Below are positions 13,828 to 58,200 of a stretch of 64,000 nt of DNA, piece by piece. Both the position numbers and the translations under genes were made by a program. The DNA is from an uncultured bacterium. GTDB lineage: Bacteria > Patescibacteriota > Minisyncoccia > Moranbacterales > UBA2206. The notes below the pieces were generated by a model, which worked only from the letters and a program-made list of their open reading frames with translations, searched no databases and was not told where the DNA came from. Where the stretch lies: positions 62,746 through 126,745 of the forward strand of contig CAIZXS010000005.1 of assembly GCA_903937035.1 (NCBI GenBank), written 5' to 3'. Position 1 is the stretch's first letter, and the number at the start of each line of letters is the position of its first letter.

Positions 13828-16800
13828 CTATATCTCTGTTACTCTTTCCACTTCCTCCAAAGTAGTCTCACCCTCTAAAACTTTCAAAATTCCATCTTGT
13901 GGCATTGTGATCATGCCTTCTTCCATGGCTTTTTGATTGAGTTCAGATGTGACTGCTCCTCGCATGACAGCTTCTTGGATTTCGCGGGAGAATGTAAATA
14001 TTTCACTGATGGTTGTGCGGCCCTTATAGCCAATGTGATTGCATTTATCGCAGCCATTGGGTTTGTGAATCTCTGATATTTCCGGGATTTCTACGCCTGC
14101 TTTTAGACTGATCGTTTTTAGGACTTTTTCCATCTTCTGTTTCTTTTCTTCAGTCGGAGCGATTTTTATTTTGCACTCACAGAGTGTGCGGACCAAGCGT
14201 TGAGCGATAAAAGCGTTGACTCCAGAGACAATATCCTCCGGTGCAACGCCCATATTGAGCATTCTAGCTACTGCTCCGGCAGCATTGTTGGTGTGGAGGG
14301 TGGAAAGTACGAGATGCCCCGTGAGAGCGGCTTGAACGGCAATGCTCGCGGTTTCATTGTCGCGGATTTCACCAATCATCATTATGTCGGGATTTTGGCG
14401 AAGCAGGGCGCGCAGGGCTGTGGAGAAAGTATAACCATCTTTTTCGCTGACGGGAGTTTGCAAGATACCTTCCATCTGATATTCGATTGGATCTTCCACG
14501 GTGATGATTTTGATTTCAGGATTTTTAATTAAATTCAAAATAGCATAGAGTGTAGTGGTTTTCCCGCTGCCAGTCGGTCCAGTATTCAAGACGACGCCAT
14601 TTGGTTTTGATACTTCAATTTTTATTTTTTCCAAATTTTGCTTTCTGATTCCTAGCTTATCCAAGTTCAGCTCCACAGATGATTTACTGAGAAGTCGCAT
14701 TACAACTGTTTCTCCAAACCCACCCAAAATTATAGACACACGGATGTCAACAGTCTTTTCTTTTAATTCTGTTAACTCTTCATCAAAACTGATACTAAAG
14801 CGACTATCGATTACACCTTGCCTCGCTTCAGTTTTCACGCCACTGAGCAGCTTGATCTGGCCCAAAAAGGTCGTGTATTCAGTAAGAGGAAGAGAGGCGA
14901 TTGTTTGGAGGATGCCATCAATGCGGAAGCGGATTTTGACGCTTTCCTTTTCTGGTTCAATGTGAATGTCTCCTACACTCAAAATTTGAGCAGCGGAAAA
15001 AATGATCTTAATGGTGTCTGTGATTTTTGTTCCAACAAGGAGCGTTTGCATTTTTTCAAAATCATTAACATTGTCCTTGGTTTTGTCAAAAAACTCCTTT
15101 TTAATCGGCAAGGTACTGCCTAGGATTTGTGACATTAATTTTTCATAAATACTTTCCAAAAAGTCCCCTTGTCCAGTGACTTTTTTCACCTCGTCAATGG
15201 AGGTGACACCACTTACGGCTTTTAGGATTCCATCTTGGAGCATTGTTACCATGCCTTCTTCAAGAACGGCCATCGTTATTTCTGTTTCACCAGCCAAATC
15301 AAGAATCAGTTTTTCTGTTTCCGGACTAATTGTGAGAACTTCAAAAATACCCATTCGTCCTTTATAACCAGTATTACCACATTTAAGGCAACCTTTTGGG
15401 CGATAGAGTTGATCAATGCTTTTGGGAATTTCCACTTTCGCTCGTGGAGAAATGATGGATAAAATTCTTTTGATTGAATCAATTGTTTCTTTGGCGGGAA
15501 CATAGGATTCTTTGCAGCTACAAAGCTTGCGAACTAGTCGTTGCCCGATAACGGCGTTTACTGCTGGGGCGATGAAAGAAGGCTTGACGCCCATTTCAAC
15601 GAGACGGGGAATGGAGGCAATTGCACTATTGGTATGAAAAGTGGAAAGCACGAGATGTCCAGTGAGGGCAGAGTTGATGGCGATGTCAGCTGTTTCATCA
15701 TCGCGGATTTCACCAACTAGAATAATATCTGGATCTTGACGCACGATTGCGCGAAGACCGGTGGCAAAAGTGTAGCCACGAGCTTTTTCGATCTGAGTTT
15801 GGGAGACTCCTTTGACTTGGTACTCGATTGGATCTTCGATGGTGATAATCTTTTTATCTGGAGTGTTTAGCTTGCTGATAATGGCATAAAGAGTGGTAGT
15901 TTTTCCGCTGCCAGTTGGCCCTGTAGTGAGGATCATGCCATTTGGGGCTTCGATTTGCTTTTGAACTGTTTCATAGGCTAATCCCTGCAATCCGAGCTGC
16001 TCAATGTTGACATTGATCGAATCTGGATCAAGGAGTCGCATTACGATGGACTCTCCAAAGCTGCCAGGAATCGATGAAGCGCGGATAGCAATTTTTTTAT
16101 TTGATAGATTGACCTCAAAAGTTCCGTCTTGCGCCATATCAGAAAGATTGAGTTTCATGCCAGACATCATCTTGATTCTTGTCGCGATTCTTTTGTGGAT
16201 ATTGAGTGGAAAAAAAGCCACATCCTGGAGTACTCCGTCGATTCGATAGCGCAAGCGAAAATCTTTTTCTTCTGGCTCAATGTGAACATCGGATGCTCCT
16301 AGTGAATATGCTCCGGCCATGATGGTGTTCATGACGTCGGTTATAGGCATTTCCTTGATTCTGTCTTTTAGGACAATCAGGTTTTTTAGGGCTGTTTCAA
16401 ATTCACCAAGTTCGCTGTCATCAATTGTTAGACTTAACTGATCAAGGATTTCAGCGAAAACAATTTTTTTGTATTTTTCCAAAACTCGATCAAAGTTGTA
16501 ACTTGAAATAACAAAGAGTTTTGTTTGTATCCCGAGTTTTTCGGAAAAAGCTTTAAGGAATTCTCTCGTGTCTTCTCTCGTGGGGTCGGTGGTTACGATT
16601 GTGGCAAGCTTGCTTTTTCGTTGGATGGCGGCAATGCCGAATTTTCTGGCAGCACTTTCTTCAATCAATTTCAAGCTATCAATGGAAACGGGAACAATGT
16701 TGGTGTCAATATAGGGGAGTTCAAGTTGGGCAGCAAATTGCGCTGTCTTTTCCTCTTCTGATTGATGCTGCAGCTTGGAAACTAATTTGCTTGAAGTGGC

Positions 16801-16848
16801 TTTTTTTTCTTCTTCTGCCCCAACTGTTTTTTTTGTTATTTTTATCAT
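13828..16848 (-). CDS. Type II/IV secretion system ATPase (GspE/PilB family) with two complete tandem ATPase cores in one polypeptide
   Basis: 1006 aa. N-terminal T2SE_Nter-like region. Two Walker A boxes (TGPTGSGKTTTLYAI twice), two Asp boxes, two His boxes (LVLSTFHTN / LVLSTLHTN) and two tetracysteine motifs (CSCK..CLKCGNTGYKGR and CECK..CDKCNHIGYKGR). Confidence 0.85.
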   Translation of the reverse strand: MIKITKKTVGAEEEKKATSSKLVSKLQHQSEEEKTAQFAAQLELPYIDTNIVPVSIDSLKLIEESAARKFGIAAIQRKSKLATIVTTDPTREDTREFLKAFSEKLGIQTKLFVISSYNFDRVLEKYKKIVFAEILDQLSLTIDDSELGEFETALKNLIVLKDRIKEMPITDVMNTIMAGAYSLGASDVHIEPEEKDFRLRYRIDGVLQDVAFFPLNIHKRIATRIKMMSGMKLNLSDMAQDGTFEVNLSNKKIAIRASSIPGSFGESIVMRLLDPDSINVNIEQLGLQGLAYETVQKQIEAPNGMILTTGPTGSGKTTTLYAIISKLNTPDKKIITIEDPIEYQVKGVSQTQIEKARGYTFATGLRAIVRQDPDIILVGEIRDDETADIAINSALTGHLVLSTFHTNSAIASIPRLVEMGVKPSFIAPAVNAVIGQRLVRKLCSCKESYVPAKETIDSIKRILSIISPRAKVEIPKSIDQLYRPKGCLKCGNTGYKGRMGIFEVLTISPETEKLILDLAGETEITMAVLEEGMVTMLQDGILKAVSGVTSIDEVKKVTGQGDFLESIYEKLMSQILGSTLPIKKEFFDKTKDNVNDFEKMQTLLVGTKITDTIKIIFSAAQILSVGDIHIEPEKESVKIRFRIDGILQTIASLPLTEYTTFLGQIKLLSGVKTEARQGVIDSRFSISFDEELTELKEKTVDIRVSIILGGFGETVVMRLLSKSSVELNLDKLGIRKQNLEKIKIEVSKPNGVVLNTGPTGSGKTTTLYAILNLIKNPEIKIITVEDPIEYQMEGILQTPVSEKDGYTFSTALRALLRQNPDIMMIGEIRDNETASIAVQAALTGHLVLSTLHTNNAAGAVARMLNMGVAPEDIVSGVNAFIAQRLVRTLCECKIKIAPTEEKKQKMEKVLKTISLKAGVEIPEISEIHKPNGCDKCNHIGYKGRTTISEIFTFSREIQEAVMRGAVTSELNQKAMEEGMITMPQDGILKVLEGETTLEEVERVTEI

Positions 16849-16912
16849 ATTTTTACCATTAAACCCGAAAAAATTATTTTTTTATAGCTCTATTCTAGCA
16901 TGAAAAGAGAAA

Positions 16913-16949
16913 ACAAAAAAACAGCCTCAGACATTCGGGGCTGTTTTTT
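16913..16949 (-). terminator. Bidirectional terminator downstream of the DHH gene
   Basis: A run, then hairpin cagcctcagacattcggggctg, then T run. Confidence 0.5.
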
Positions 16950-16973
16950 CTGGAACGGTTTTTTGATACTAAA

Positions 16974-18116
16974 TTAAGTATTTATGAGTTGGGTACTTTC
17001 AATTTTGTCTCGAATGATTCTCGCGGTTAACATTAAATCGCTCTCGGTAGATTTAATTTCTAGCGCCTCATTGATTATGGGTTGTCCAAAAAGCAAGGAG
17101 ATTTTTCGAAGCAGCTCGTTGGTTGCTGCTTTGATAATAGCGATTGAGCTATTTGGGGCATTGCTATATATAATCATGAAAATTTGACCGTCGCTATAGT
17201 TCTCTTGTAGTTTTTCCAAAATTATCGGTAGGCTTTCTGGGCTGGTTCGGCTTTGAACAAAATCATCCAGAGAGAGGCTGGCCCAAGCTAGTTTGGTTTT
17301 TTCTTCCCAATTTAGCTTGCTCATGACTCTCCCGAGTAGTTTTAGGATTGATAGTGGCTGAGTTTTGTAGAGCCAGCGAATGATGCCTTGCTGATCGGCG
17401 CCTCGATCCATGAGATCGGCGGCGGCGAGTAGGGCTTTTGGCGTGGTGTTTTTCTTTTGGAAATTTCCAGTGGCACCAATGATTCCCGTCATGAGGCAAG
17501 TTGCTACATTTTTGTCAAAACTAGAAGGATCTACGCTTTCTAGTATTGGCTTTAAAATTTCTGCGCAAGATGAGGCTGTAATATCAACTAAATTGATTTG
17601 TCCAAAATTTTCATTGTTACTTCTGTGATCGATATTTATAATAGGAACCTCGAAGAATAGATCTGAGTTGTTGATGTAAACTGTTCCTAGGCTTTCTAAG
17701 TCTGGGCTATCTAAAATAACAATGAGGTCATATTTGAATTTGGCTAGGATGAAAGAAAAGTCTCTTGGATCAATTGAGCCTTTTTCAGGCGTAAGATAGA
17801 CGTTAAAAGAATCGCCAATTGTTTCTTGGCGCAGTCCCATGATTTTATTGCGACTAGTATCGAACGACAGGACGAATTCGCGCGCACCTGATATTTCTGA
17901 AATGATATTTTTCGGACCTGGGAGGAAGTCAATCTTTGCTTCAGAGGGTTTTTTATTTGAAACGATTGTGGCGGAAATGTTCTTGTTTTCCAAAAAAAAA
18001 TTCAATGCCCAGGCGCTTCCAATTGCGTCAAAGCTGGGATTTTCAGGAATGAAAATGAGCACATCCTTGGCGCCAGTGATGAATTTATAAAATTGTTCTT
18101 GTGGATCTAGGCTCAT
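16974..18116 (-). CDS. DHH-family phosphoesterase-like protein (NrnA-like architecture, motifs partly degenerate)
   Basis: 380 aa. VLIFIPENPSFDAIGSAWAL (motif I region) and NIDHRSN (DHH-like motif III reading DHR). C-terminal DHHA1-like region without a clean GGGH. Confidence 0.5.
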   Translation of the reverse strand: MSLDPQEQFYKFITGAKDVLIFIPENPSFDAIGSAWALNFFLENKNISATIVSNKKPSEAKIDFLPGPKNIISEISGAREFVLSFDTSRNKIMGLRQETIGDSFNVYLTPEKGSIDPRDFSFILAKFKYDLIVILDSPDLESLGTVYINNSDLFFEVPIINIDHRSNNENFGQINLVDITASSCAEILKPILESVDPSSFDKNVATCLMTGIIGATGNFQKKNTTPKALLAAADLMDRGADQQGIIRWLYKTQPLSILKLLGRVMSKLNWEEKTKLAWASLSLDDFVQSRTSPESLPIILEKLQENYSDGQIFMIIYSNAPNSSIAIIKAATNELLRKISLLFGQPIINEALEIKSTESDLMLTARIIRDKIESTQLINT

Positions 18117-18212
18117 AGAAAAAATAGGGGTTAGGTTTTTAGGTAGTATTTCAAGGTAGCAGGGATTTTTGTGAGTGTCAAATGGGAGTGTTTTGTGGAT
18201 ATTTTTCCGAAC

Positions 18213-18240
18213 AAAAAAGAGCCCTAATCAATAAGGGCTC
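18213..18240 (-). terminator. Rho-independent terminator after ispG
   Basis: Minus-strand hairpin gagcccttattgattagggctc followed by a T run. Confidence 0.55.
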
Positions 18241-18259
18241 CTAAAGGAGGGCTAATAAA

Positions 18260-19312
18260 TTATAATTTCTCGATTTCTTCCAAGAGTGTCTTGAGAATAT
18301 CCTTTTCCTGAACTGATTTAATTACCTTGCCTTTGGCAAATATCGCACCCATGCCTTTTCCGCCAGCCACGCCAATGTCGGCTTCACGCGCTTCACCAGG
18401 GCCGTTGACCACACAGCCCATAACAGCGATATGGATATCTTTGTCAATATTTTTCACCGCTGCTTCAACTTTTTCAGCCAAGTCGATGAGAGCAATTTGG
18501 GTTCGTCCACAAGTTGGGCAGCTGGTAACGGTTACACCTTTTTTTCTCAGTTTTAGTGATTTTAAAATCTCCCATGCCACTTTCATTTCTTCAACAGGAC
18601 TTGCCGTGAGTGAAACACGCAGAGTGGCGCCGATGCCTTCATAGAGGAGAATTCCAAGACCAATCGACGACATAATTGTTCCACGGAAAATTGTACCGGC
18701 TTCGGTGATACCAATGTGCATTGGGTAGTCAACTTTTTTGGACAAAAGGCGATAGGCTTCAACCGTTCTTTCAATGTCCGAGGCTTTCATGGAAATTAAG
18801 ATGTCTTTAAATTTATATTTTTCCAAAATTCGAATATGGCGCATGGCTGATTCAACCATCCCTGCTGCCGTGACCTTGTCTTTGTATTTTTTTAGTATGT
18901 CTTTTTCCAAAGAGCCGCCGTTAATGCCAATCCGAATTGGAATTTTGTTTTTCTTGCAAGCCATTACCACTGCCCTTATTTTGTCTTCTGTTCCTATATT
19001 TCCCGGATTGATGCGAACTTTGTCAATACCTTGCGCAATAACTTCGAGTGCTAATTTGTGATCAAAATGAATGTCGGCCACAAGTGGAATGTGAATTAGT
19101 TTTTTGATTTTCCCCACAGCTTTTGCTGCTTCCATGTCCAAAATGGCTACGCGCACAATCTCGCAGCCAGCTTTTTCTAGCTCCAAAATTTGTTTCACGG
19201 TTGCCTTGATATCTCGCGTATCGGTGTTGCACATTGATTGTACGCGCACAGGATTTCCACCGCCCAGCTTGTATGGTCCAACTTTGACGACGCGGGATTT
19301 GTATTTTTTCAT
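18260..19312 (-). CDS. ispG: 4-hydroxy-3-methylbut-2-en-1-yl diphosphate synthase IspG/GcpE
   Basis: 350 aa. MKKYKSRVVKVGPYKLGGGNPVRVQSMCNTDT.., C-terminal Fe-S cysteines CPTCGR. Confidence 0.9.
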   Translation of the reverse strand: MKKYKSRVVKVGPYKLGGGNPVRVQSMCNTDTRDIKATVKQILELEKAGCEIVRVAILDMEAAKAVGKIKKLIHIPLVADIHFDHKLALEVIAQGIDKVRINPGNIGTEDKIRAVVMACKKNKIPIRIGINGGSLEKDILKKYKDKVTAAGMVESAMRHIRILEKYKFKDILISMKASDIERTVEAYRLLSKKVDYPMHIGITEAGTIFRGTIMSSIGLGILLYEGIGATLRVSLTASPVEEMKVAWEILKSLKLRKKGVTVTSCPTCGRTQIALIDLAEKVEAAVKNIDKDIHIAVMGCVVNGPGEAREADIGVAGGKGMGAIFAKGKVIKSVQEKDILKTLLEEIEKL

Positions 19313-19334
19313 GTAATTAGGATGTTTTAAAAAT

Positions 19335-20204
19335 TTAGGCTATTTCTATAAAAAACTGTGGGTAATATTTTTGGAGAATCTCTCTTGCTCTGAGCACATC
19401 CCTCTTTGTTTCAAAAATTCCGAAGACCGTTGGTCCCTTGCCAGTAAGGGATACTCCAATTGCGCCAAAAGAAATGAGTGCTTTTTCTAGTGTTTCTGAA
19501 ATTGGGTATTTTTTCTTAGCTACGATTGAGAAGTCATTATACAGGCATCGGCTCATTTCATTCAGGTTGGAGCTATTTTTCACAAATTTAGCAGAAAGAT
19601 TTTTTCTTTTTGGGTTGTTCATAAAAAGCAAATCTTTGTCGAGCTCGGAGTATGCCCAGGGGGTGGAAATTTCTCCAGCAGGATTGATGACTAGAATATT
19701 AAGTTTTGGAAAACTTTTGATTTCTTTGATTTTCTCTCCCATGCCACAAATGAGGGCAGCGCGAGAATTTGAGATAAAAAAAGGGATATCTTTTCCGACT
19801 TCTGCGGCTATATCGATGAGCTCTCTTTGGGATAAAATATTTTTAAAATGAGTATTGAGGGTTAAGATAACCGCTGCGCCGTTGGAACTTCCCCCGGCCA
19901 TTCCAGCCGATAGTGGAATGTTTTTCTCGATGAATATCCTTAGCCCGACGGATTTTCCTGTTTTTTTAAAAAAACGTTCAGCAATTTTCCAGCAAATATT
20001 CTTTTCGTCAATCGGGACAGCAGGGATATTGCAAATGATTTCAATACCATTTTTATTTTCATCAAAAATAAGCTCAATTTTATCGAAAAGATTCTCTGTT
20101 TTTAGCATCACTGAGCGAAGTTCATGAAAACCACTAGGTAGTTTTTTTGTCACCTCCAGAGTCAAGTTTAGTTTAGCGGGTGATTTCACTTTAATTTTTT
20201 TCAT
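19335..20204 (-). CDS. ispE: 4-diphosphocytidyl-2-C-methyl-D-erythritol kinase IspE
   Basis: 289 aa. KVKSPAKLNLTLEV, GHMP kinase motif PLSAGMAGGSSNGAA. Confidence 0.85.
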   Translation of the reverse strand: MKKIKVKSPAKLNLTLEVTKKLPSGFHELRSVMLKTENLFDKIELIFDENKNGIEIICNIPAVPIDEKNICWKIAERFFKKTGKSVGLRIFIEKNIPLSAGMAGGSSNGAAVILTLNTHFKNILSQRELIDIAAEVGKDIPFFISNSRAALICGMGEKIKEIKSFPKLNILVINPAGEISTPWAYSELDKDLLFMNNPKRKNLSAKFVKNSSNLNEMSRCLYNDFSIVAKKKYPISETLEKALISFGAIGVSLTGKGPTVFGIFETKRDVLRAREILQKYYPQFFIEIA

Positions 20205-20679
20205 CCTTGACCAGACTAATAATTACAAAAACCTGGATTCCTTCACCTTTTCCGAAAGCGGTCAGTTTTTCTCCCGAAGTAGCATTGATTCCAATTTGAG
20301 ACTTTTCAATTTCTAGGAGCTTGGTTAAACTTTCCTTCATTTTTTCTTCTAGTGGGATTATTTTTGGTCTTTGGCATTCCAAAGAAATCCCAATATTATT
20401 AATCACATATCCTCTTTCTTTTATATGGCGCATGGCTACTTTTAAATATTCACGGCTATCATTAATTCCCGCTTGATTCATTTTATCCGCATAGATAGAA
20501 AAAGACTCTCCTCCAATTGCCTGTTCTAACGCGCGACAAATCGCGTGAATTACAGCATCGCCATCAGAATTTCCCTCAAGGCTGGGCTCATTTTCAATTT
20601 CAATTCCACCTAAAATTAATTTTTTGTCCGGATTCCCTGAAAATTTATGAGAATCTTGTCCTAGTCCAACTCGAAACAT
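20191..20679 (-). CDS. ispF: 2-C-methyl-D-erythritol 2,4-cyclodiphosphate synthase IspF
   Basis: 162 aa. MFRVGLGQDSHKF.. and GNSDGDAVIHA. Confidence 0.9.
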   Translation of the reverse strand: MFRVGLGQDSHKFSGNPDKKLILGGIEIENEPSLEGNSDGDAVIHAICRALEQAIGGESFSIYADKMNQAGINDSREYLKVAMRHIKERGYVINNIGISLECQRPKIIPLEEKMKESLTKLLEIEKSQIGINATSGEKLTAFGKGEGIQVFVIISLVKDEKN

Positions 20680-20683
20680 ATTT

Positions 20684-21385
20684 TTAATAGTTTTTTAGGA
20701 TTAATTTTGCCAATTCCAAATCTAGTGGCGTTGTTAATTTAAAGTTATTTTTTGAGGCTTCAATTATTTTCACTTTTTTCCCAAATCTTTCAACAAGGCT
20801 TACATCGTCAGTGCCCAGAAAATTATCAGAGTTGGCTTTTTGAAAAGCTTTTTTTGCCAGGGTAAATTGAATTGCTTGTGGAGTTTGCATGTTCCAAAGT
20901 TTTGATCTGTCGAGAACTTGGATGGAAAGGCCATATTTATTGACTTCTCGAATAGTATCCTTTGTTCTGTGGGCAACGGCGCAAGCGCCACGCTTTCTTG
21001 CTTCCATGACACAAGAATGCAACTCCAAATTAGTTACAAAAGGGTTCGCTCCATTGTGGAAAATCAATATTAGCCCTTGTTTGCCTTTGTTGTCAAACGA
21101 AGTGTCAATAAAGTCAATCCCGGCATAACTCGAATCTTGTCTCTCTTTTCCGCCAGGAATTATTCCCAGTATTTTTTTAAATTTATATTTTTTAACGATT
21201 TTCTCGAAAGTGTTTCGGTCTTTTTCTTGAGCTACCAAAACAATGCCGTCGATATCTTTCGATTTTTCGAATGCTTCTAATACATAAAAAATAATCGGTT
21301 TTCCTCCGAGAGTAATAAGCGTTTTATTTTTCCCCGCGCCCATTCTTTTTCCAATTCCAGAAGCGAGGATGATTCCAATATTCAT
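20684..21385 (-). CDS. ispD: 2-C-methyl-D-erythritol 4-phosphate cytidylyltransferase IspD
   Basis: 233 aa. MNIGIILASGIGKRMG N-terminal nucleotidyltransferase motif. Confidence 0.85.
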   Translation of the reverse strand: MNIGIILASGIGKRMGAGKNKTLITLGGKPIIFYVLEAFEKSKDIDGIVLVAQEKDRNTFEKIVKKYKFKKILGIIPGGKERQDSSYAGIDFIDTSFDNKGKQGLILIFHNGANPFVTNLELHSCVMEARKRGACAVAHRTKDTIREVNKYGLSIQVLDRSKLWNMQTPQAIQFTLAKKAFQKANSDNFLGTDDVSLVERFGKKVKIIEASKNNFKLTTPLDLELAKLILKNY

Positions 21386-23469: not shown

Positions 23470-23493
23470 GTTTTTTTTACTTTGAAATAAAAA

Positions 23494-23523
23494 AACCATC
23501 CCAGGATTAGGGATGGTTTTTTG
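23494..23523 (+). terminator. Rho-independent terminator after rpsT
   Basis: aaccatccc-aggattag-ggatggtt hairpin followed by a T run. Confidence 0.6.
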
Positions 23524-23530
23524 TGTTTTA

Positions 23531-23679
23531 TGTCATCCTGAGCGTAGCGTAGTGGAGTCGAAGGATCTACCTTGCGCCATCTAGAGCCTGATTTATATTT
23601 GCAAAGCTTAGGGTGGTGACTAGCAGATCCTTCGACTGCATAAATTTCCTGGTGAAAATTTATTCCGCTCAGGATGACA
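23531..23679. repeat. Repeat family A, copy 1 (inverted-repeat element, ~149 bp)
   Basis: Starts tgtcatcctgagcgtagcgtagtggagtcgaaggatct and ends agatccttcgactgc...cgctcaggatgaca. The 14-bp termini are perfect reverse complements, and inner arms gtcgaaggatct/agatccttcgac are also complementary. Confidence 0.7.
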
Positions 23680-23699: not shown

Positions 23700-24674
23700 T
23701 TACAACTCCACAATAAACTTATCCAGCGATAACTTTATATCCGCTTGGCCAGTTTTTATTTTCGTATCAAGCGTACCTAGCTTTTTATAAATAGAGGTTA
23801 GCTTATTTTCACCAAAATTCTTAGCTTGCATGTAGCTCTTTTTCACTACAAAGGGATGAAGCTTGGTAATTTTGGCAATTTCAAACTCACTAAAAATGCC
23901 ATCTTCCTGAAGTGACGCGATGCGCAGGAGATTTCTGAATTGATAGACAAACATTGAAAAAAGATAGAAGGGATCGTCGCCATTATCGAGATGACGATGA
24001 AATAATTCTAGCGCCTTTTTCTTTCTATTGGCACTAAGCGCTTCAATTGTTTCGAAGATATTATTATCCAAATCAGCCTTAGTTAGGAGATCGATTGCCT
24101 CGGCGCTAATCATGGAAGACCCGGAGAAGCTGATTAATTTCTCCAGTTCTTGAGTGAGTAGTGCTGTGTCATTTCCGACGAAGGTAATTAATTTTTCTAG
24201 GGCGTCTTTGGCGATGGACGCTTCAGGGGAGGAGATTTTGATGCTATCTACAATCCATTGATTTAGCTTTGTGCCAGAGAGTTTCTCGAAATTTTGCTTT
24301 CTTGATTGCACTAAGAGAAATTTAAATAGAGCATTGTTTTTTCGAGGAATCCCTTCTTCCCAAAAAAGTACGACCAAATCGGGGTCAACTTTTATTTTTT
24401 CAGCGTGTTCTTTTAGGAATTTTAGTATCTTTGCTTGCTCGTCAGTTGGCGATTCTATGATGATTCTTTTGGCGATAAATAATTTTTTTGAAGAAAAGAG
24501 TCCTGAGGCAGAAAGGGTGGCTTTCATTTTCTCGTATGCACTATCCTTTGAATCTTTGGCATCAAACAAAGACAAACCCGCGCGGGATTTGTCATTGAGA
24601 GAAAACTTATTTTTTATTTCTAGTACTTTCTCATAGGATCTGAAAGTATCTTCACCGTAGAAAAAAATAATCAT
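23700..24674 (-). CDS. holA: DNA polymerase III delta subunit HolA
   Basis: 324 aa. MIIFFYGEDTF..SYEKVLEIK start and overall delta-subunit pattern. Identity from family-level resemblance only. Confidence 0.65.
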   Translation of the reverse strand: MIIFFYGEDTFRSYEKVLEIKNKFSLNDKSRAGLSLFDAKDSKDSAYEKMKATLSASGLFSSKKLFIAKRIIIESPTDEQAKILKFLKEHAEKIKVDPDLVVLFWEEGIPRKNNALFKFLLVQSRKQNFEKLSGTKLNQWIVDSIKISSPEASIAKDALEKLITFVGNDTALLTQELEKLISFSGSSMISAEAIDLLTKADLDNNIFETIEALSANRKKKALELFHRHLDNGDDPFYLFSMFVYQFRNLLRIASLQEDGIFSEFEIAKITKLHPFVVKKSYMQAKNFGENKLTSIYKKLGTLDTKIKTGQADIKLSLDKFIVEL

Positions 24675-28791: not shown

Positions 28792-28926
28792 TGTCATTCT
28801 GAGCGTAGCACAGCGGAGTCGAAGAATCTGCTTGCTATAATCCCAATTTTTACTATAAATCACTAAGTCAGTAATAATGGTCAGTAGGTCCTTCGGCTAC
28901 GTCTGAGTACAGATTTCGCTCAGGAT
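28792..28926. repeat. Repeat family A, copy 2 (3-prime end degenerate)
   Basis: tgtcattctgagcgtagcacagcggagtcgaagaatctg ... tcgctcaggat. It lacks the terminal gaca. Lies between the DUF2207 stop and the DUF1653 start. Confidence 0.6.
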
Positions 28927-28934
28927 AAAAAATT

Positions 28935-29213: not shown

Positions 29214-29385
29214 ATCCACCTCACCCTTTTACCTTCAAGCCGTTGAAGGTAAAATCTCCTTAGCAAGGAGAGGGGACGGAACGCAGAGATGTTGGGTGTA
29301 TTTATGGTGATTTTAGAATGGAAAGATGCTGAAGTAGGCCTTCTCCTTATCAAGGAGAAGGTGGTCGAAGACCGGATGAGGTGAG
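29214..29385. repeat. Repeat family B, copy 1 (extended, opposite orientation to copies 2 and 3)
   Basis: atccacctcaccc ... ctccttagcaaggagagg ... ggccttctccttatcaaggagaaggtggtcgaagaccggatgaggtg, the reverse complement of the B3 consensus plus extra hairpin accttcaagccgttgaaggt. Confidence 0.65.
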
Positions 29386-29386
29386 T

Positions 29387-30325
29387 TTACTTCTGACACC
29401 CCGCGCAGTAAAATACACTCCTTTGCGCCATCTTTTTACGCAAAACTAATCCACCGCATTTGGCAGGACAAGGCAATTTATCTCGACGATAAACTTTAAG
29501 CATTTCTTGAAAATGTCCCGGTGCGCCGTCTGAATCGCGATAATCACTGTCCGATGTTCCGCGCATTTTGATGGCGAGCTTTAGAATTTTTTTTGTTGCA
29601 AGAAAGATTTTTTTTCGTTCAACTTTTTCGAGACTTTCATTTTTGCGCTCCGGCAGAACGCCAGCAGTAAAAAGAATTTCACTGCGATAGATGTTGCCGA
29701 TGCCCGAGACGATGCTTTGGTCGAGAAGAAAAATGCCAATGAGCATTTTTGGTTTTGCATCCAATAGTGCGTTAAATTTAGCGAGAGTGAAATCGGTGCT
29801 CATAGCATCAATCCCAATCTTTTTTTCCGCTAAATATTTTTCGAGCGCTTTGGTTTCCAAGAGTCGCATCGTGGCAAATTTCCGCAAATCAGAAAATTCC
29901 AGAGTCCTATTCTTATTCAAATACCAAATGTGATGAATATATTGATTAACTTTGTCGTCGAAGAAACTCACCTCATCCGCCCTACAGGCACCTTCTCCTT
30001 GGTAAGGAGAGGGGCTTTTTGTATTTTGTTCCCTCTTCTTACTGAGGAGATGGTTAGGGTGAGGTGGATTTGACTTCACGAGCAAATGCCCAGTCATCCT
30101 CAGATGAATATGCAAAGACTTTCCGCCAGAAAGATTGAGAAATATATTTTTTCCCACTCGCTCAGCCAAAAGAATTTTTTTGTTTTTCATCTCACGCTTA
30201 AATTTTTCCAAAACCGTACCTTTAATGGCAGATGGAAAATCAGACCAGAATTTTGTAATGGTAGCGCCTTTAATTTTCTTATTCAAATCCGCCACAACTG
30301 TTTCAACCTCAGGTAGTTCGGGCAT
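29387..30325 (-). CDS. mutM: Formamidopyrimidine-DNA glycosylase (Fpg/MutM) carrying an in-frame ~34-aa insertion derived from repeat family B
   Basis: 312 aa. MPELPEVETV N-terminus (catalytic Pro2, Glu3), H2TH region and C-terminal zinc finger CPAKCGG...CAGCQK. Residues ~83-116 (VKSNPPHPNHLLSKKREQNTKSPSPYQGEGACRA) are encoded by the repeat B copy. Confidence 0.8.
   Translation of the reverse strand: MPELPEVETVVADLNKKIKGATITKFWSDFPSAIKGTVLEKFKREMKNKKILLAERVGKNIFLNLSGGKSLHIHLRMTGHLLVKSNPPHPNHLLSKKREQNTKSPSPYQGEGACRADEVSFFDDKVNQYIHHIWYLNKNRTLEFSDLRKFATMRLLETKALEKYLAEKKIGIDAMSTDFTLAKFNALLDAKPKMLIGIFLLDQSIVSGIGNIYRSEILFTAGVLPERKNESLEKVERKKIFLATKKILKLAIKMRGTSDSDYRDSDGAPGHFQEMLKVYRRDKLPCPAKCGGLVLRKKMAQRSVFYCAGCQK
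29968..30068. repeat. Repeat family B, copy 2 (inside the fpg coding sequence, in frame)
   Basis: cacctcatccgccctacaggcaccttctccttggtaaggagaggggc...ccctcttcttactgaggagatggttagggtgaggtgga, with terminal inverted repeats cacctca/tgaggtgg and two internal palindromes. Confidence 0.7.
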
Positions 30326-33296: not shown

Positions 33297-33310
33297 AGAT
33301 TTTAATTAAA

Positions 33311-33414
33311 TCCACCTCATCCGGCCTACGGCCACCTTCTCCTTGGTAAGGAGAAGGGCTCTTTTTGCATTCGTTTCCTCTCCTTACTAAGGAGAGGGCT
33401 AGGGTGAGGTGGAT
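33311..33414. repeat. Repeat family B, copy 3 (intergenic)
   Basis: tccacctcatccggcctacggccaccttctccttggtaaggagaagggc...cctctccttactaaggagagggctagggtgaggtgga. Terminal inverted repeats plus two internal perfect palindromes (ccttctcctt-ggt-aaggagaagg and cctctcctta-ct-aaggagagg). Confidence 0.7.
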
Positions 33415-33703
33415 TCTAAAAAAGTCTTATTTAATTATCATCACCCCAAAACTGACCATATTTCAAAAATCCCTTATTCTGGCTTAATTATACATCAGTT
33501 TAAAACTTATGTCAACATCGTCGCAATAATACTGTTGACAATAATCGATTTATCTGGTAAGCTTTTGAGTCAAGTTGAGAGAGGGCTCTCGAGGAGACAG
33601 GGTAATTTAACCTTATTGTTGAGTCAAGATATTCAAAATAAGCCTTAAAAAGGGCATATGTGAATAGAGAAGCTTTACAATGCTAATCTTTAAGCTAAAA
33701 ACC

Positions 33704-41279: not shown

Positions 41280-41302
41280 ACGAATTAGTATTCGCCATGG
41301 AC

Positions 41303-41340
41303 AGGAGCTGAGCTTCTGGAGCTCCAGAAGCTCAGCTCCT
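41303..41340. promoter_or_regulatory. Perfect 19+19 bp palindrome immediately upstream of TrmB paralog 3 (candidate operator)
   Basis: aggagctgagcttctggagc|gctccagaagctcagctcct. No T run on either side, so it is unlikely to be an intrinsic terminator. Confidence 0.4.
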
Positions 41341-41386
41341 GTTTCGCTAGCTATTATTTAAGGTGCCAAATTGGAACCTTAGAAAT

Positions 41387-42088
41387 TTAATCCTTTTCTA
41401 TAGTATTGTCATAAAATCCAATTCTCTTTTTTGGCTCAGTATCTTCTTTCATCAGCCGCGCAATCATTTGAAAAACAACCTTGAAACTCTTGTCATATTT
41501 ATTTTCCATCAGCTCAACTTTTTCACGCAGTTGCTTGTGAGTGGACAAAATCTCTCGCAGTTTTACAAAAGTCCGCACAATTTGGATACTAACCGCCACC
41601 GCGCGCTTGCTTTTGAGAACGGCAGAAAGCATCGCGACGCCTTGCTCGGTGAAAACATAGGGAGCATATTTCAGATGTTGTCCACGACCTTTCTTCAAGG
41701 TCACAAATTGTGACCTTGAAGATTTGTTATTGTTTAAGATTCCATTTTGGAATCTTAAAGATTTTTTGTCACTTGAGGTCACAAATTGTGACTGCAAGTT
41801 TTCATCGTTCAAGGTGCCATTTTGGTACCTTGAAAATGCGGTAGCCTCTTTTTCACTTAATTGAAACATGAAATCTTTTGGAAATCGGTCAATATTTCTT
41901 TTAACAGCTTTATTTAAATTTCCTGTGATTACGCCATAAAGTTCAGCTAAATCTCGGTCAAACATCACCTTTTCCCCGCGAATAAAGTAAATTTGGCTCA
42001 TTATGCGTTCATCGGGGACTGCACTTGAGGTTCCATTTTGGAAGCTCAAGTTTTCTTTCTTGGCCATATTTTTTGATTTTTTAGACAT
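41387..42088 (-). CDS. ORF6N-domain protein (phage anti-repressor/Rha-like family) with internal in-frame duplication
   Basis: 233 aa. IYFIRGEKVMFDRDLAELYGVITGNLNKAVKRNIDRFPKDFMFQLSEKE is the ORF6N N-domain. C-terminal region has YAPYVFTEQGVAMLSAVLKSKRAV. There is an extra ~38-aa insert with FQNG/SQFVT repeats. Confidence 0.6.
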   Translation of the reverse strand: MSKKSKNMAKKENLSFQNGTSSAVPDERIMSQIYFIRGEKVMFDRDLAELYGVITGNLNKAVKRNIDRFPKDFMFQLSEKEATAFSRYQNGTLNDENLQSQFVTSSDKKSLRFQNGILNNNKSSRSQFVTLKKGRGQHLKYAPYVFTEQGVAMLSAVLKSKRAVAVSIQIVRTFVKLREILSTHKQLREKVELMENKYDKSFKVVFQMIARLMKEDTEPKKRIGFYDNTIEKD

Positions 42089-51545: not shown

Positions 51546-52535
51546 ATGACTGCGAAAAATAAATTTCTTGCTTTTCTTAGAATCGGTGCATTTCTTTACT
51601 TTATTTTTCTGGGAAAAGGAGCATTTGCTCTCACAATTTCTCCTCCAGTGAGGGAGATGACAGGGGACCCAGGAACAAAAATCAGTGGGATTATAAAGCT
51701 TTACAATGAAACCAATAAGGACCTTTCCGTTACTCCTTCGCAGTCAGACTTTGGCGCCAAGGAAACTGGTGACGGCGAGCCAGAATTTTTTGAGTTGAGC
51801 GGAGAAAAATCAAAAGATTTAGCCAGTTGGATTAAGGTTCCCGCTGGTCCTTTTGCAGTTAGATCGCTTGATTGGCAAAATATTATTTTTGAAATTGATA
51901 TCCCAAAAGATGCTGAGCCCGGAGGTCACTATGCTGCAGTTTTCTTCAGTCCGCAGCAATCAGAGAAAGACAATAATGGATCAGTTAGTGTTGACTATAG
52001 AACTGGGACATTGATTCTTCTCACGGTTTCGGGAAAAATGAATGAAAGTGGAAATTTGAAAAGTTTCTCTCTGAAAGATGGCAAAAAATTCTATGATCAC
52101 ATTCCGGTTAATTTTGAATTGAATGTTGAAAACAAGGGCAATGTTCATTTTAAACCAGCGGGAAATATCATTGTTAAAAGTATGTTTGGCGGAAATATCG
52201 CTGAGCTGCCAGTCTTGAAGGTTGATTCTGGTGGAAATGTTTTGCCCAGAAGCAGCCGTCGATTTGAGATTGTTTGGGGTGATTCGGATGAAAAGAAAAT
52301 GCCTAAAACTTTTTGGGAAAAGGCTAGATATGAATGGGCTAATTTTTATGTCGGAAGATATAGTGCGCTTGCGAGTGTGACGCTTCCTGGAAGCGGTCAG
52401 GTGACTTCCAATGTTTCATTCTGGGTTTTTCCTTGGCAGTTGCTTATTGTGCTGGCCATTGGACTGGTTGTGTTATTGTTTGCGTTTAGAACGTATAACC
52501 GTTGGATTATCAAAAAAGCCAGAGAGAAAAAATAA
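51546..52535 (+). CDS. DUF916/DUF3324-like cell-surface protein with C-terminal TM anchor, paralog 2
   Basis: 329 aa. EPGGHYAAVFFSP, FELNVENKGNVHFKPAGNIIVKS, C-terminal TM LLIVLAIGLVVLLFAF plus basic tail. Collinear with 48648..49622. Confidence 0.45.
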   Translation: MTAKNKFLAFLRIGAFLYFIFLGKGAFALTISPPVREMTGDPGTKISGIIKLYNETNKDLSVTPSQSDFGAKETGDGEPEFFELSGEKSKDLASWIKVPAGPFAVRSLDWQNIIFEIDIPKDAEPGGHYAAVFFSPQQSEKDNNGSVSVDYRTGTLILLTVSGKMNESGNLKSFSLKDGKKFYDHIPVNFELNVENKGNVHFKPAGNIIVKSMFGGNIAELPVLKVDSGGNVLPRSSRRFEIVWGDSDEKKMPKTFWEKARYEWANFYVGRYSALASVTLPGSGQVTSNVSFWVFPWQLLIVLAIGLVVLLFAFRTYNRWIIKKAREKK

Positions 52536-52581: not shown

Positions 52582-52720
52582 TGTCATTCTGAGCGTAGCG
52601 CAGCGAAGTCGAAGAATCTGCTATGAGTTATTCTAATCCTTGCTATATTATAGAAAGCTTATGGTAGTGGATGGCAGATCCTTCGACTGCGTCCGAGTAC
52701 GGACTTCGCTCAGGATGACA
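52582..52720. repeat. Repeat family A, copy 3
   Basis: tgtcattctgagcgtagcgcagcgaagtcgaagaatctg ... gcagatccttcgactgcgtccgagtacggacttcgctcaggatgaca. Preceded by a C7 homopolymer. Confidence 0.7.
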
Positions 52721-52761
52721 TTTTTATTTAAATGCGCAAGTCCTTTTTTCAAAAGTTCGCT

Positions 52762-53514
52762 ATGAAAATTTATTTTGCTCTATTTATTCTTTTCTTTGGT
52801 CTTGGGACTGCCTCGGTTTTTGCTGCAATGAGCAGTCCAAATTTTTCTATTCAAAGTGATGATGTTTCCGTGGCCGGTTCTCGTTCTGAATCGTCCAATT
52901 TTCGTGCTGAGGATACTTTGGGCGAGTTAGCTACCGGAGATTCATCTAGCGCTTCCTATCGCTTGCGATCGGGCTATCAAAGTATGCAAGAGGTGTATCT
53001 TGCACTAAGCGCTCCATCGGATGTGACGATGACCCCAACTATTCCTGGTGTGAGTGGTGGCTCTGGCAATGGTTCTGTTTTTTGGACTGTGACAACAGAT
53101 AATCTAGCAGGCTATTCTTTTTATGTTAGAGCAGGAGCAGCCCCAGCTCTCACTAAATTAGGTAACCCTGGCGTATTTTTTGATGACTATACTCCTGGCG
53201 CAGCTCCTGATTATGCCTGGCAAGTTGATTCGACAAAAGCCGAATTTGGCTTCACCCCGGAAGGGTCTGATATTGTGCAAAAATTTCGTGATAATGGATC
53301 ATCTTGCAACACAGGAACATTTGATACGCCAGATGCTTGTTGGTATAATTTTGTTGCATCTAACCCGGGCGAGCTGATTGCTCACTCAGCCGGTTCCAAT
53401 CATCCAACTGGCATTGCCACCACCGTCAAGGTGGAGGCTCAATCGAATTCTTCTCATTTGCAAGAGGCTGGGACCTATCAAGTAACAATCACCGTGACAG
53501 CATTGGCAAATTAA
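52762..53514 (+). CDS. Secreted mosaic surface subunit: N-module of the 49640 type + C-terminal domain of the 47966 type
   Basis: Start taken at MKIYFALFILFF (signal peptide). The ORF track starts 10 codons earlier at 52732. AAMSSPNFSIQSDD...GELATGDSSSAS parallels 49640. LALSAPSDVTMTP...GTYQVTITVTALAN parallels 47966. Confidence 0.45.
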   Translation: MKIYFALFILFFGLGTASVFAAMSSPNFSIQSDDVSVAGSRSESSNFRAEDTLGELATGDSSSASYRLRSGYQSMQEVYLALSAPSDVTMTPTIPGVSGGSGNGSVFWTVTTDNLAGYSFYVRAGAAPALTKLGNPGVFFDDYTPGAAPDYAWQVDSTKAEFGFTPEGSDIVQKFRDNGSSCNTGTFDTPDACWYNFVASNPGELIAHSAGSNHPTGIATTVKVEAQSNSSHLQEAGTYQVTITVTALAN

Positions 53515-55261: not shown

Positions 55262-58200
55262 ATGCCGCCGCTAAAACAAAAAAATCAAAACACAATATCT
55301 TTTCAAAAGACCTCCTTCGTGTTGATTTTCTTGGCAGTTGTTTTCCTCGTTGGCGTGAAAAATTCTCAGGCGGTAATTTCTGAGAAGATTAATTATCAAG
55401 GAAAATTGACTGATTCGAGTAACGTAACTGTAGCTGACGGAGCATATGACATTGTTTTCAATCTTTACACGACTGCTGGTGGTGGTTCTCCAATTTGGAC
55501 AGAGTCTTGGACAAACTCAGCCCTTTTCACAAATTCTGGAACAACTTTCACAAATAATGGTTGCGCGGCAGGAGTGGATCGCATGGCCTATACTGGAGAC
55601 ACTAACGAGGGAACACTTTCAGCGGGACAATATCTTTGGAATACAACCAAAAAGGAATCAGCCGTAATTGAGTCTGTGAGCACTTCCGGTTCTGGCGGGT
55701 ATATTTGTTTTTATGATCCCTATTCAACTTGGGCAAGTAGTGATGCTATTTCTAACCGCATCTATGTCCGCAGTGGAATTTTTTCCACTATGCTTGGAAG
55801 CGTGCAAAGTCTCAGTGCAATTGATTTCAATCAAACGCTCTATCTAGGAGTGACAATCGGAGGTGATCCAGAAATGCAACCAAGAAAAGTGATTGGTTCT
55901 GCTCCATCAGCTTTTACAGCCAAAACATTGAATAATAATGGCACTGCAACAATAGCCACCAATGCCGGGGCGACAATTAGCATTGGCAATACAACTGGAG
56001 CAGCTACTGTGCTTTCCGGCGGAGCATCTTCTTGGGCTAACACGAGTGGAAACCTGACTGTTTCTACGGTGACTTCCGGAACGCTCGCTGTGACATCAGC
56101 TGGAGCACTTAATTTGTCTGCCGCTGCCGCTTCGACTGCAACGCTCGCCAATGTTGCTGATGCATTTAATTTTGATAGCAACACTCTTTCTGTTGATGCT
56201 CTGAATAATCGAATCGGAATTGGGACGGCTGCTCCAACCGCATTTTTGGACATAGCAGCATCCACAACTGGCGCTGCTAGCTTGCGTTTGCAAACAGGAG
56301 TTGCTCCGACAACTCCGAATATCGGTGATATGTGGTTTAATGGGACTAATCTATATTTCAGAAAAGATGGTACAACATCGCAAGACTTGTTGGCTTCAAG
56401 TGGTAGCGGACCTTGGACTGACGGCACTGGCGTTACATATATAACTGACACAGCAGAGGACTTGGCAATCGGCGCAGCAACATTGGTTGCGCCTTTTTCC
56501 GTTGATGTTTCCCTGAATACTGCTCGCATCGGTACTGGAGCGACTAATAATGGAATTCTAAACATGTATGCCTCAGATGGTGATACTGGTTCGCTTGCTT
56601 ATACCACCGACGATGCTTGGACTTTCACGGGTGGTAATGTGGGAATTGGCACTACTCAACCATGGAGTGCTCTTCATGTCACTAGTAGTGTATTGTGGGG
56701 TTCAAATGTTTATCTCGAAGCCACCAATGCTGGTGCGGATTTTCCAGTTTGGACATTTAAGAAATCCAGAGCAGGCGCTTCGGTGAATGCTTGGGATTCA
56801 TTGGGGGAGATGAAATTTGCTGGAGTCAACAGCACGGGAAGTTCAGATTCTGATTTTGGAACTATTATTGGTATTGCGGAAGATCCAACTTCGGGTTCAG
56901 AAGATGGAAATTTTATGTTTTCTGTTGTCAGAGGTGGTGCAATGATTGAACAAGCAAGATTTAGTGGGCCGGAGGGAGTTAATTTTAATTACCAGAACTC
57001 TCCCAATGTTGATTTTACGGTTTCAGGAGACACAATCAGTCAACTCATATTCGCTGATGCCAGCACAGACACAATTGGGATTGGTGTTGCTGCGCCAAAA
57101 GCTTTTCTGTCACTAGCCGGTGCTACGGCTGGAAAATCTTCCCTGAATATTGCTACTGGCACTGCTCCAACCGGCGGTAATCTCTATGATGGTGATATGT
57201 GGTATGAAACTGGGCATCTCTATTTCCGCGATACGACAACGAAAGACCTCTTAGCTGGAGGAGGAATGGCAATTGGAGGAACAATCTCAAATAGTCCCAA
57301 TGATACGTCAATACTATTCGTGAACGGTTCAGTTCTCGCCCAAGATACCAATTTTACTTGGAACACAACTAATGATGAATTGGGAATTGGAGTGGCTCCG
57401 ACATATAGAGTTGATGTTGCAACGGCGGTGGCAAGTGATCGTGGAGTTAATATTTCCAATACTGCTGCAACAGGAACAAACTATGGTATCTTTTCTTCCG
57501 TCACCGGCGCAGCGACTGCTAATTATGGTGGAAATTTTGCATCCAGTGGCGCTGTTACCAATTATGGCGTGAATATTGCTGGCATGACAGGGTCGGCTAC
57601 AGCTTTGAATAACTATGGCGTATATGTGGGAACCATTACGAGCACCAGCTCAACCAATGCGGTTAATTATGGAATATATGTCAATGGAATAACTGGAGTT
57701 ACAGCCGAGGATAATGCTACAAACGTTGACTTATACCTAGGAAATATCACTGGCTCAACCACAACTTCAAGTAATATTGGACTCAAGATGGGAACCATCA
57801 CAAGCACCTCTGGAACCGGATCGAACTACGGAATTCAATTAGGTGCCATTTCTGGCGCAACAAATAATTCCTATGGCATTTCACTTAATACCTTGACCGG
57901 AGGCGTTCTGACCAACACTCAAATTGCGACTGGCCAGATCACTGTAACAGGCGCAGTGACTGGAAGCTATGCTCTTAATCTGGGTGGGTTGACGGGAACA
58001 GCTAACGCAGCGACTAACGCTGGAATCAATCTTGGTGCAATAAATTCCGCCGGAACAACGAGCACAAACTATGGAATTCGCTTGAGCACAATGACCGGAG
58101 GAACAACCGCAAATTATCAAATTGCGACTGGCGCGCTCACAAACACTGGTACGACCAACATTCAGCTCGATTTAGGCGGACTTTCTGGTTCTGTTGCATC

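Follow-up and report, generated by a model that had tools for sequence, protein, structure and literature searches.

The 64,000-nucleotide (nt) stretch analysed here, hereafter the window, is part of a 145,961-bp metagenome contig and lies next to the replication origin of a Candidatus Moranbacteria/Moraniibacteriota genome, a member of the Candidate Phyla Radiation (CPR), and contains three copies of a palindromic repeat, all intergenic and all in one common orientation (Table 1). The genes dnaA, dnaN, rnpA and yidC are found 2-5 kilobases (kb) before window position 1, and dciA, dnaN, dnaA, rnpA, yidC and jag were seen upstream of the window at 15600-20978 of the locus L211. Since these origin genes stand just before the window and the GC skew is above zero over all 64 kb, the window can be regarded as running along one replichore from beside the origin, and its plus strand as leading-strand sequence. 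Copy 1 follows the intrinsic terminator of rpsT (23490-23522) and is separated by 21 nt from the stop of a minus-strand holA-like gene (23700-24674), copy 2 stands between a DUF2207 gene and a DUF1653 gene, and copy 3 lies in a spacer between two co-directional open reading frames (ORFs). The identities of rpsT, DUF2207 and DUF1653 were confirmed, copy 2 is kept in all three contigs that encode an identical DUF2207 protein, and a tRNA/tmRNA scan gave nothing involving the repeats. The first-pass annotation had placed three inverted repeats downstream of plus-strand genes; all three are indeed present and intergenic, while copy 2 runs to about 28930 rather than 28926, copy 1 occupies a convergent spacer behind a terminator, and the label "DUF916-like" for the ORF at 51546-52535 is unsupported, with no Pfam match at E<=0.001.

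Each copy consists of two arms of 36-53 nt in inverted arrangement, (T)GTCATYCTGAGCG…CGAAGRATC, with a centre of approximately 55 nt between them. When the outer 13-mer GTCATYCTGAGCG was searched with up to two mismatches, 8 matches were detected in the window (1.94 expected; none of 100 shuffles reached 8), and six of them correspond to the arms of copies 1-3. In copy 2 the right outer arm is decayed, reading …CGCTCAGGATAAAA / …CAGGATAAAA, its GTCAT head being gone. This decayed arm contributes an AGGA at 28922-28925, 9 nt before the DUF1653 start codon, which may have been co-opted as the ribosome-binding site of that gene.

Table 1. Positions of the three repeat copies and their arms in the window.
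Feature	Position	Strand	Context or basis
Copy 1, whole doublet	23531..23679	+	Between the rpsT terminator and the holA-like stop codon, in a convergent spacer
Copy 1 left arm, GTCAT→ on + strand, GTCATCCTGAGCG-TAGCGTAGTGGAGT-CGAAGGATC	23532..23567	+	Sequence; detector for GTC + 5-bp palindrome + C
Copy 1 right arm, GTCAT→ on - strand, AAATTT-rich side hairpin inserted between GAGCG and AGTCGAAGGATC	23626..23678	-	Sequence; GTC-palindrome-C detector
Copy 2, whole doublet	28792..28930	+	Fills the 149-nt spacer from the DUF2207 stop (28785) to the DUF1653 ATG (28935)
Copy 2 left arm, GTCATTCTGAGCG…CGAAGAATC	28793..28828	+	Sequence; GTC-palindrome-C detector
Copy 2 right arm, degenerate, GTCAT head changed to TTTAT	28887..28929	-	13-mer with 2 mismatches; direct reading
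Copy 3, whole doublet	52582..52720	+	196-nt spacer between co-directional ORFs 51546-52535 and 52732-53514
Copy 3 left arm, GTCATTCTGAGCG-TAGCGCAGCGAAGT-CGAAGAATC, ATTCT…AGAAT type	52583..52618	+	Sequence; GTC-palindrome-C detector
Copy 3 right arm, GTCATCCTGAGCG-AA-GTCCGTACTCGGAC-GC-AGTCGAAGGATC, ATCCT…AGGAT type, side hairpin	52677..52719	-	Sequence; detector; single-stranded DNA fold

As had been noticed in the first pass, the outer 14-bp and inner ~12-bp segments of every copy are reverse complements, and each copy is predicted to form a long branched hairpin. RNA folding of the plus strand gave -66.1, -41.1 and -59.0 kcal/mol for copies 1, 2 and 3, with z-scores of -8.1, -4.0 and -5.5, respectively. 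The predicted structure comprises the outer 14-bp stem, an inner stem (GTCGAAGRATC/GATCCTTCGAC) that extends into the centre, and, in the 3' half, a small side hairpin whose stem varies among the copies and yet remains paired (ATAAATTT…AAATTTAT, GTCTG…CAGAT and GTCCG…CGGAC). When the right arms of copies 1 and 3 were folded as single-stranded DNA (ssDNA), the ATCCT/AGGAT closing stem was formed in the predictions, with values of -6.2 (copy 1) and -6.9 kcal/mol (copy 3).

The distribution of the family was examined by searching viral contigs and a one-genome-per-species collection for two outer 13-mers at a spacing of 95-125 nt. The two-arm pattern was found at more than 120 genome loci, a lower bound, in at least about 16 bacterial phyla, as well as in 7 viral contigs, whereas the chance expectation in 596 Gb was estimated by hand at ~0.02. 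The element statistics below refer to the matches listed (127 loci, 135-141 elements). Among these, the phyla or groups represented are Acidobacteriota, Chloroflexota, Verrucomicrobiota, Bacteroidota, Bacillota, Planctomycetota, Actinomycetota, Pseudomonadota, Bdellovibrionota, Gemmatimonadota, Ignavibacteriota, Armatimonadota, Abditibacteriota, Nitrospirota, Eremiobacterota and Patescibacteria, and the nearest relatives of the window copies occur in Moraniibacteriota metagenome-assembled genomes (MAGs; L077 and L112) and in L105 and L032. Of 135 elements, 112 carry the inner CGAAGRATC on both sides, although it was not part of the search pattern.

These elements are modular. The arm can be written as GTCATYCTGAGCG-(N)AG-CGAAGRATC and frequently contains an insertion between GAGCG and AGTCGAAG, which is a variable hairpin in some arms and a series of NAGCG pentamers in others; the left arms of the window are of the pentamer kind and the right arms of the hairpin-insert kind. 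In other words, an arm consists of (T)GTC, a palindrome ATYCT…AGRAT and C(T), with an interior formed by GAGCG-NAG-CGA or by the inserted hairpin. Arms are also found singly, in tandem or nested arrays (L079, L083, L084 and L047). Within an arm, the Y in GTCATYCT and the R in GAAGRATC vary together (C-G in 191 cases, T-A in 50 and other combinations in 9, i.e., 241 of 250 Watson-Crick), and the left and right arms are of different types in 31 of 141 elements. In a 38-row non-redundant pseudo-alignment (A3), the intra-arm pairs 6-19 and 32-45 were CG in 26 and UA in 8 rows, with three or four exceptions, while the matching inter-arm pairs contained 10-14 wobble or unpaired cells. Similarly, 8 of the 11 Moranbacteria copies combine an ATTCT…AGAAT (T-A) left arm with an ATCCT…AGGAT (C-G) right arm. 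Because Y and R covary within the arm and the left and right types often differ, each arm appears to be a unit of its own, made of GTC, a palindrome and C, and the long imperfect hairpin described in the first pass is then not the only unit. Since the two arms face each other around the centre, each DNA strand carries one correctly oriented arm at its 5' side. The centre, which had been considered variable, can be aligned among the Moranbacteria copies, indicating homology of the whole element; RNAalifold on these 11 copies recovered the outer and inner inter-arm stems only, with little covariation.

A candidate partner of the arms was provided by an all-against-all clustering of the ORFs around the elements (127 loci, 919 kb), in which the sole recurrent small family was a GIY-YIG protein of 90-97 amino acids. 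Three of its four occurrences are directly flanked by CTGAGCG-type arms: in L060, the arm GTCATTCTGAGCGAAGCGAAGAATC stands 16 nt ahead of the start codon, and in L071 and L022 whole doublets are located on either side of the gene. Two further independent loci (the L219 and L228 groups), to which homologues of the L060 protein led, have CTGAGCG/CTGAACG-type arms arranged canonically, and thus such arms bracket the gene, here referred to as ssn, in five independent loci, forward upstream and inverted downstream. All arm-flanked GIY-YIG proteins match PF01541. In the ten metagenome contigs of one of these groups (L228-L237), ssn at 401-685 lies between sbcD and sbcC, the genes of a nuclease that cleaves DNA hairpins. 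A search of viral contigs with three CTGAGCG-flanked ssn proteins retrieved one locus, with a hybrid arm variant. A PDB sequence search with an Ssn homologue gave only spurious WD40 matches with no matched stretch, and in NCBIfam only GIY-YIG intron-endonuclease matches below threshold were observed.

A full-text literature search with a canonical arm variant, GTCATTCCCGCG, led to the Ssn family (cd10448), a group of small GIY-YIG nucleases described by Chenal et al. (Nat Commun 2025, PMC11893778). In that study, SsnA of Neisseria meningitidis was reported to bind the NTS hairpin CGTCATTCCCGCGMAVGCGGGAATCYRG as ssDNA only, with no binding of double-stranded DNA, RNA or the reverse strand, and to cut a few nucleotides upstream of the hairpin, requiring three bases (GTC) 5' of the palindrome for cutting and a C just 3' of it for binding. 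SsnA also reduces transformation by DNA carrying NTS, and it was pointed out that NTS-ssnA-NTS resembles an insertion sequence (IS), the questions of mobility and of a role beyond Neisseria being left open (PMC11893778). Five of the six window arms have the form GTC-ATYCT…AGRAT-C and thus keep the determinants of both cleavage and binding, whereas the right arm of copy 2 lacks GTC. Among 80 metagenome loci with relatives of the GIY-YIG protein, nearly all show GTCATTCCCGCGAAGGCGGGAATCCAG upstream of the gene and its inverse downstream. A GTC-palindrome-C hairpin was detected within 150 nt upstream of ssn in 56 of 72 cases, inverted downstream in 49 of 70 and on both sides in 39 of 62, compared with a background of 0.83 per kb for this generic detector, a pattern that reproduces the published one (PMC11893778). 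Moreover, Moraniibacteriota MAGs themselves encode ssn (P0126 and P0177), flanked by GTCATTCCCGCGAAGGCGGGAATCCAG and an inverted copy. In one Moranbacteria MAG (L217, 7118-11311), an NTS-flanked ssn stands beside a pair resembling a diversity-generating retroelement (bAvd and a reverse transcriptase) and an ORF with a weak Y1_Tnp match.

Comparison of orthologous sites provides information about the turnover of these elements. Three syntenic loci (L213, L214 and L215) were found through holA homologues whose proteins are 77-84% identical. The holA-rpsT spacer contains a CTGAGCG doublet in the window and in L213, a canonical NTS doublet in L215 (GTCATTCCCGCGGAGGCGGGAATCCAG … GATTCCCGCCTGCGCGGGAATGAC) and another GTCAT…GGGGATGAC (GTCAT…ATGAC) pair in L214, and all of these elements end at one common point beside the rpsT terminator. 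In L214 the TrmB-Fapy spacer holds 164 nt of element; in both the window (4 nt) and L215 (44 nt) it is empty. The window genome has empty sites following a T2SSE-like gene and ruvB, and these are filled in L215 and L214. Gain, loss and exchange of elements have therefore occurred within the divergence time of these genomes. A copy at 20513-20659 of L215 shares both the AAATTT side hairpin and the centre of copy 1. Exact insertion junctions could not be resolved from filled and empty sites, the intergenic DNA being too diverged at this level of protein identity. Orientation with respect to replication or transcription is mixed among the few cases in relatives. Target-site duplications were also sought in 130 elements: no direct repeat was present in 118, and repeats of 1, 2, 3 and 4 nt were present in 3, 4, 2 and 3, respectively, close to a shuffled-partner control; 82% of arms have a T immediately before GTCAT. 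In addition, a small GC-rich hairpin, CCTGCCTGCCGGTAGGCAGG, is located inside the arms or centres of several Moranbacteria palindromic elements (L214 6600-6640 and 11180-11260; L215 6640-6830) and looks like a third, tiny repeat that targets palindromic elements.

Taken together, the sequence comparisons suggest that the three copies are gene-less doublets of an Ssn-related hairpin motif, similar to REPINs (doublets of repetitive extragenic palindromic (REP) units) and to neisserial intergenic mosaic elements (NIMEs), which would act as ssDNA and would depend on an Ssn-type GIY-YIG nuclease encoded elsewhere; a probability of roughly 0.6 may be given to this reading. The elements are probably mobile. 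In the proposed mechanism, the arms would be recognised by the nuclease whenever the DNA becomes single-stranded, for example as lagging-strand template, as incoming transforming or conjugative DNA, or during repair, and the nuclease would then nick just outside each end of the doublet. Such nicking might single the DNA out for ssDNA restriction or for the control of recombination, and it might also supply ends from which the doublet could be copied or excised as a non-autonomous unit, which could underlie its spread or loss. The biological role would thus be the control of incoming or replicating ssDNA. Effects at the RNA level, such as a large hairpin in the polycistronic transcripts at copies 2 and 3 or the AGGA before DUF1653, are likely to be by-products.

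Several observations weigh against this interpretation. No ssn homologue was detected in the 64-kb window (best E 0.36) or in ~66 kb of related Moranbacteria DNA around the orthologous genes, and the 5.7 kb beyond the window start revealed dnaA/dnaN and neither an element nor ssn. The ssn genes that were found in Moranbacteria carry canonical NTS and not CTGAGCG arms, and therefore no cognate enzyme can be assigned to the CTGAGCG arms in this lineage. The arms also fail the published expression for Ssn-related motifs (SRMs), HGTCWYN(0-2)YYVSBRHN(0-5)WNVSBRGN(0-2)RNCYNB, in a hand check, because CCTGAGCG or TCTGAGCG after GTCAT cannot meet YYVSBR at any permitted offset. The arm-flanked GIY-YIG proteins are regarded as putative SsnA (cd10448) homologues on account of their Pfam GIY-YIG match, size and single domain and of the flanks of L216, which agree with the NTS consensus at 27 of 28 positions, and the window arms are, from their sequence, candidate Ssn substrates. 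Furthermore, inter-arm pairs next to the centre covary as well (in A3, 21-30 is UA in 19 and CG in 8 rows, and 23-28 shows four pair types), and therefore the long palindrome also seems to be maintained, for which the published Ssn model offers no explanation; the linkage within arms could in part result from the inheritance of arms as blocks. Finally, the simple CTGAGCG arm alone is predicted to form a weak ssDNA hairpin (-1.9 kcal/mol, z ~0, compared with -8.9 for canonical NTS), and the left arms of the window lack the ATYCT/AGRAT stem in their predicted minimum-free-energy ssDNA structures. This low predicted stability of single arms is a real weakness of the hairpin argument. The oligonucleotide d(GCGNAGC) was reportedly found by Hirao and co-workers in the 1990s to be an unusually stable DNA mini-hairpin with a GNA loop, and the arm interior GAGCG-NAG-CGA contains this motif beside a tandem G·A/A·G step. 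Standard nearest-neighbour parameters give no credit for the GCGNAGC mini-hairpin or for the tandem G·A step.

Some of these observations would also be expected if the copies were inactive, decaying relics, that is, palindromes left behind by ancient Ssn cassettes or by recombination hotspots and tolerated in intergenic DNA. The loss of the GTCAT head from the right arm of copy 2, the window without an ssn gene, the unchanged state of copy 2 across three contigs and the occupation of equivalent spacers in relatives by unrelated palindromes (such as an element resembling the family B repeat described below, at the copy 2 site of L215) are consistent with such decay. This explanation is nevertheless unlikely, as GTC, palindrome and C are intact in five of six arms, compensatory changes within arms imply ongoing selection, and gains and losses between genomes with 77-84% identical holA proteins imply recent turnover.

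The role of a structured RNA or REP-like transcript element at gene 3' ends, with the long hairpin serving as terminator, mRNA 3'-end stabiliser or small RNA, was among the original proposals and accords with the intergenic position of all three copies after plus-strand genes, with the probable transcription of copies 2 and 3 in co-directional gene runs, with the very stable predicted folds (z -4 to -8), with T-rich runs after copies 1 and 3, and with G·U pairs on the plus strand of copy 2 where the minus strand would have A·C. However, no Rfam match at gathering score was obtained in the window or in 18 related loci (at E<=10, copy 1 matched only the neighbouring terminator or noise), copy 1 already lies behind a canonical terminator, and the inner inter-arm stem of 8 of the 11 Moranbacteria copies contains a plus-strand A·C mismatch, each arm being internally Watson-Crick. 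The stems conserve primary sequence (GTCAT…, CGAAGRATC) across ~16 phyla and not just pairing, and orientation to the flanking genes varies in relatives, with the elements at 6558-6723 of L214 and 15617-15738 of L215 inverted between co-directional genes. With identical ends bracketing a nuclease gene, and RNA not being bound by SsnA (PMC11893778), the RNA explanation appears decidedly improbable.

Among mobile-element models, a REPIN-type element moved by a Y1 (HUH) transposase of the RAYT (REP-associated tyrosine transposase) or IS200/IS605 kind, to which the GIY-YIG association would be secondary, would account for the architecture of two inverted hairpin units with a spacer (the doublet in 135 elements), for the intergenic location and for the absence of target-site duplication, and a weak Y1_Tnp ORF does stand beside one Moranbacteria ssn locus (L217). 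It is very improbable given that no recurrent Y1 transposase was found in 919 kb around 138 listed elements, where GIY-YIG was the only recurrent small family, that REP heads are GTAG or CGTC (PMC3733652) and the head is GTCAT here, and that the ends fit the experimentally defined determinants of Ssn substrates. A classical MITE (a miniature transposable element with inverted repeats), i.e., an internally deleted cut-and-paste (DDE) IS with the outer arms as terminal inverted repeats, would match the 13-14-bp repeats, the size of 120-150 bp, the several intergenic copies and their presence/absence polymorphism, and can practically be dismissed in view of target-site duplications not above control in 130 elements, no transposase gene with such ends in the 127 listed loci, single arms in tandem arrays and nested sets, and an arm-internal covariation that a DDE terminal repeat does not need. 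The preference of the first-pass annotation for a MITE/REP-like element over a small RNA thus stands with respect to the wide, intergenic and polymorphic occurrence and to a gene-carrying relative with shared ends, and falls with respect to the target-site duplications and DDE transposase of a MITE; the autonomous parent that it suggested looking for appears, in other genomes, as an ssn gene for a GIY-YIG single-strand nuclease with the same ends, and no recurrent transposase family was found around the listed elements.

A broader conjecture can be formulated, which we consider possible though doubtful: the CTGAGCG-type doublets might represent a pan-bacterial non-autonomous mobile family that is copied or excised in trans by Ssn, and Ssn/SRM might constitute an unrecognised class of ssDNA transposons with REPIN-like derivatives, active even in tiny CPR genomes, whose arm classes replace one another at chromosomal sites as nuclease specificity evolves. 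The pairing of SRM repeats with Ssn nucleases was published in 2025 (PMC11893778). What appears not to have been described in the searchable literature, which does not cover the supplementary motif set of PMC11893778, is the CTGAGCG arm class itself, missed by the published expression, as well as its spread over ~16 phyla, its occurrence as doublets whose centre is conserved and which may hold inserted hairpins, and the turnover and arm-class replacement at orthologous CPR sites. Full-text literature searches for the arm sequences returned chance matches only, and no relevant element is described in the accessible parts of the MITE literature (PMC11602168 and PMC5896051). These findings make the mobility of Ssn/SRM systems and the co-evolution of nuclease and hairpin directly testable, and add to the enzyme-site pairs that are candidates for ssDNA tools. 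In the annotation of metagenome-assembled genomes, many spurious ORFs labelled "hypothetical protein" and long palindromes between genes are explained by such elements.

Other repeats were also observed in the window. A palindromic repeat, family B, is present at 29326-29392, 29964-30070 and 33304-33416 (…CACCTCATCCGsCCTACrGsCACCTTCTCCTTGGTAAGGAGArGG…TAGGGTGAGGTGGATT). Its second copy lies inside a Fapy/MutM-like glycosylase ORF (29387-30325, minus strand), where the protein alignment shows an in-frame insert, with ~21 amino acids more than in L214 and 11 more than in L215, which recalls the Rickettsia palindromic elements; in L215, the DUF2207-DUF1653 spacer, orthologous to the copy 2 site, is likewise filled by a family-B-like element. 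A perfect 42-bp palindrome without spacer is located at 41301-41342 (ACAGGAGCTGAGCTTCTGGAG / CTCCAGAAGCTCAGCTCCTGT) and is followed by three copies of a hairpin repeat, TTAAGrTTCCAttTTGGAAyCTTAA, at 41358-41391, 41734-41767 and 42025-42058. Tandem 192-nt repeats (57978-58485) and dispersed repeats (56313-56395 / 58926-59008 and 60008-62277) occur within very large ORFs at the window end, a region that probably encodes a repetitive surface protein. In addition, an internal duplication of ~71% identity (13838-14604 versus 15176-15945, 1.34 kb apart) was noticed in the region of a gene for a T2SSE-like ATPase of 1006 amino acids.

Comparison with known systems places the window elements nearest to the SRM/Ssn pairs, with partial resemblances elsewhere. 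Classical MITEs, such as Correia elements and QMITEs, are similar in size, terminal inverted repeats, intergenic location and potential effect on the expression of neighbouring genes, and differ in that here there is neither target-site duplication nor a DDE parent and the arms themselves are structured units. REP/REPIN-RAYT systems and bacterial interspersed mosaic elements (BIMEs) share the inverted hairpin doublets around a spacer, the non-autonomous and intergenic state without target-site duplications, and a single protein gene bracketed by the units. In contrast to REP/REPIN-RAYT, the partner here is a GIY-YIG nuclease and not a Y1 HUH transposase, the head is GTCAT and not GTAG/CGTC, and nearly identical arms are found across many phyla. 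The dRS3 repeats and NIMEs of Neisseria likewise consist of short variable segments bounded by inverted hairpins of the ATTCCC-N8-GGGAAT type, which the doublet at the orthologous site of L215 fits (ATTCCCGCGGAGGCGGGAAT), whereas the window arms fall outside ATTCCCN8GGGAAT, the host is a CPR bacterium, and a role in phage integration and transformation is known for Neisseria only. With respect to NTS/SRM and Ssn (PMC11893778), the window-type stem has 5 bp (ATYCT/AGRAT) followed by GAGCG…CGA instead of a GC-rich 8-bp stem, the arms fail the SRM expression and often hold an extra hairpin or NAGCG reiterations, and the window elements contain no gene and are inverted doublets whose centres are homologous and whose arms are complementary to each other over an extended length. 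On the other hand, both are oriented repeats (the window arms as putative hairpins) with GTC directly 5' of a palindrome ATYC……GRAT followed by C, both are 20-50 nt long, intergenic and present in hundreds of related copies across phyla, and both bracket a gene for a single-domain GIY-YIG protein of ~95 amino acids, forward upstream and inverted downstream, while canonical NTS doublets and ssn genes do occur in Moranbacteria.

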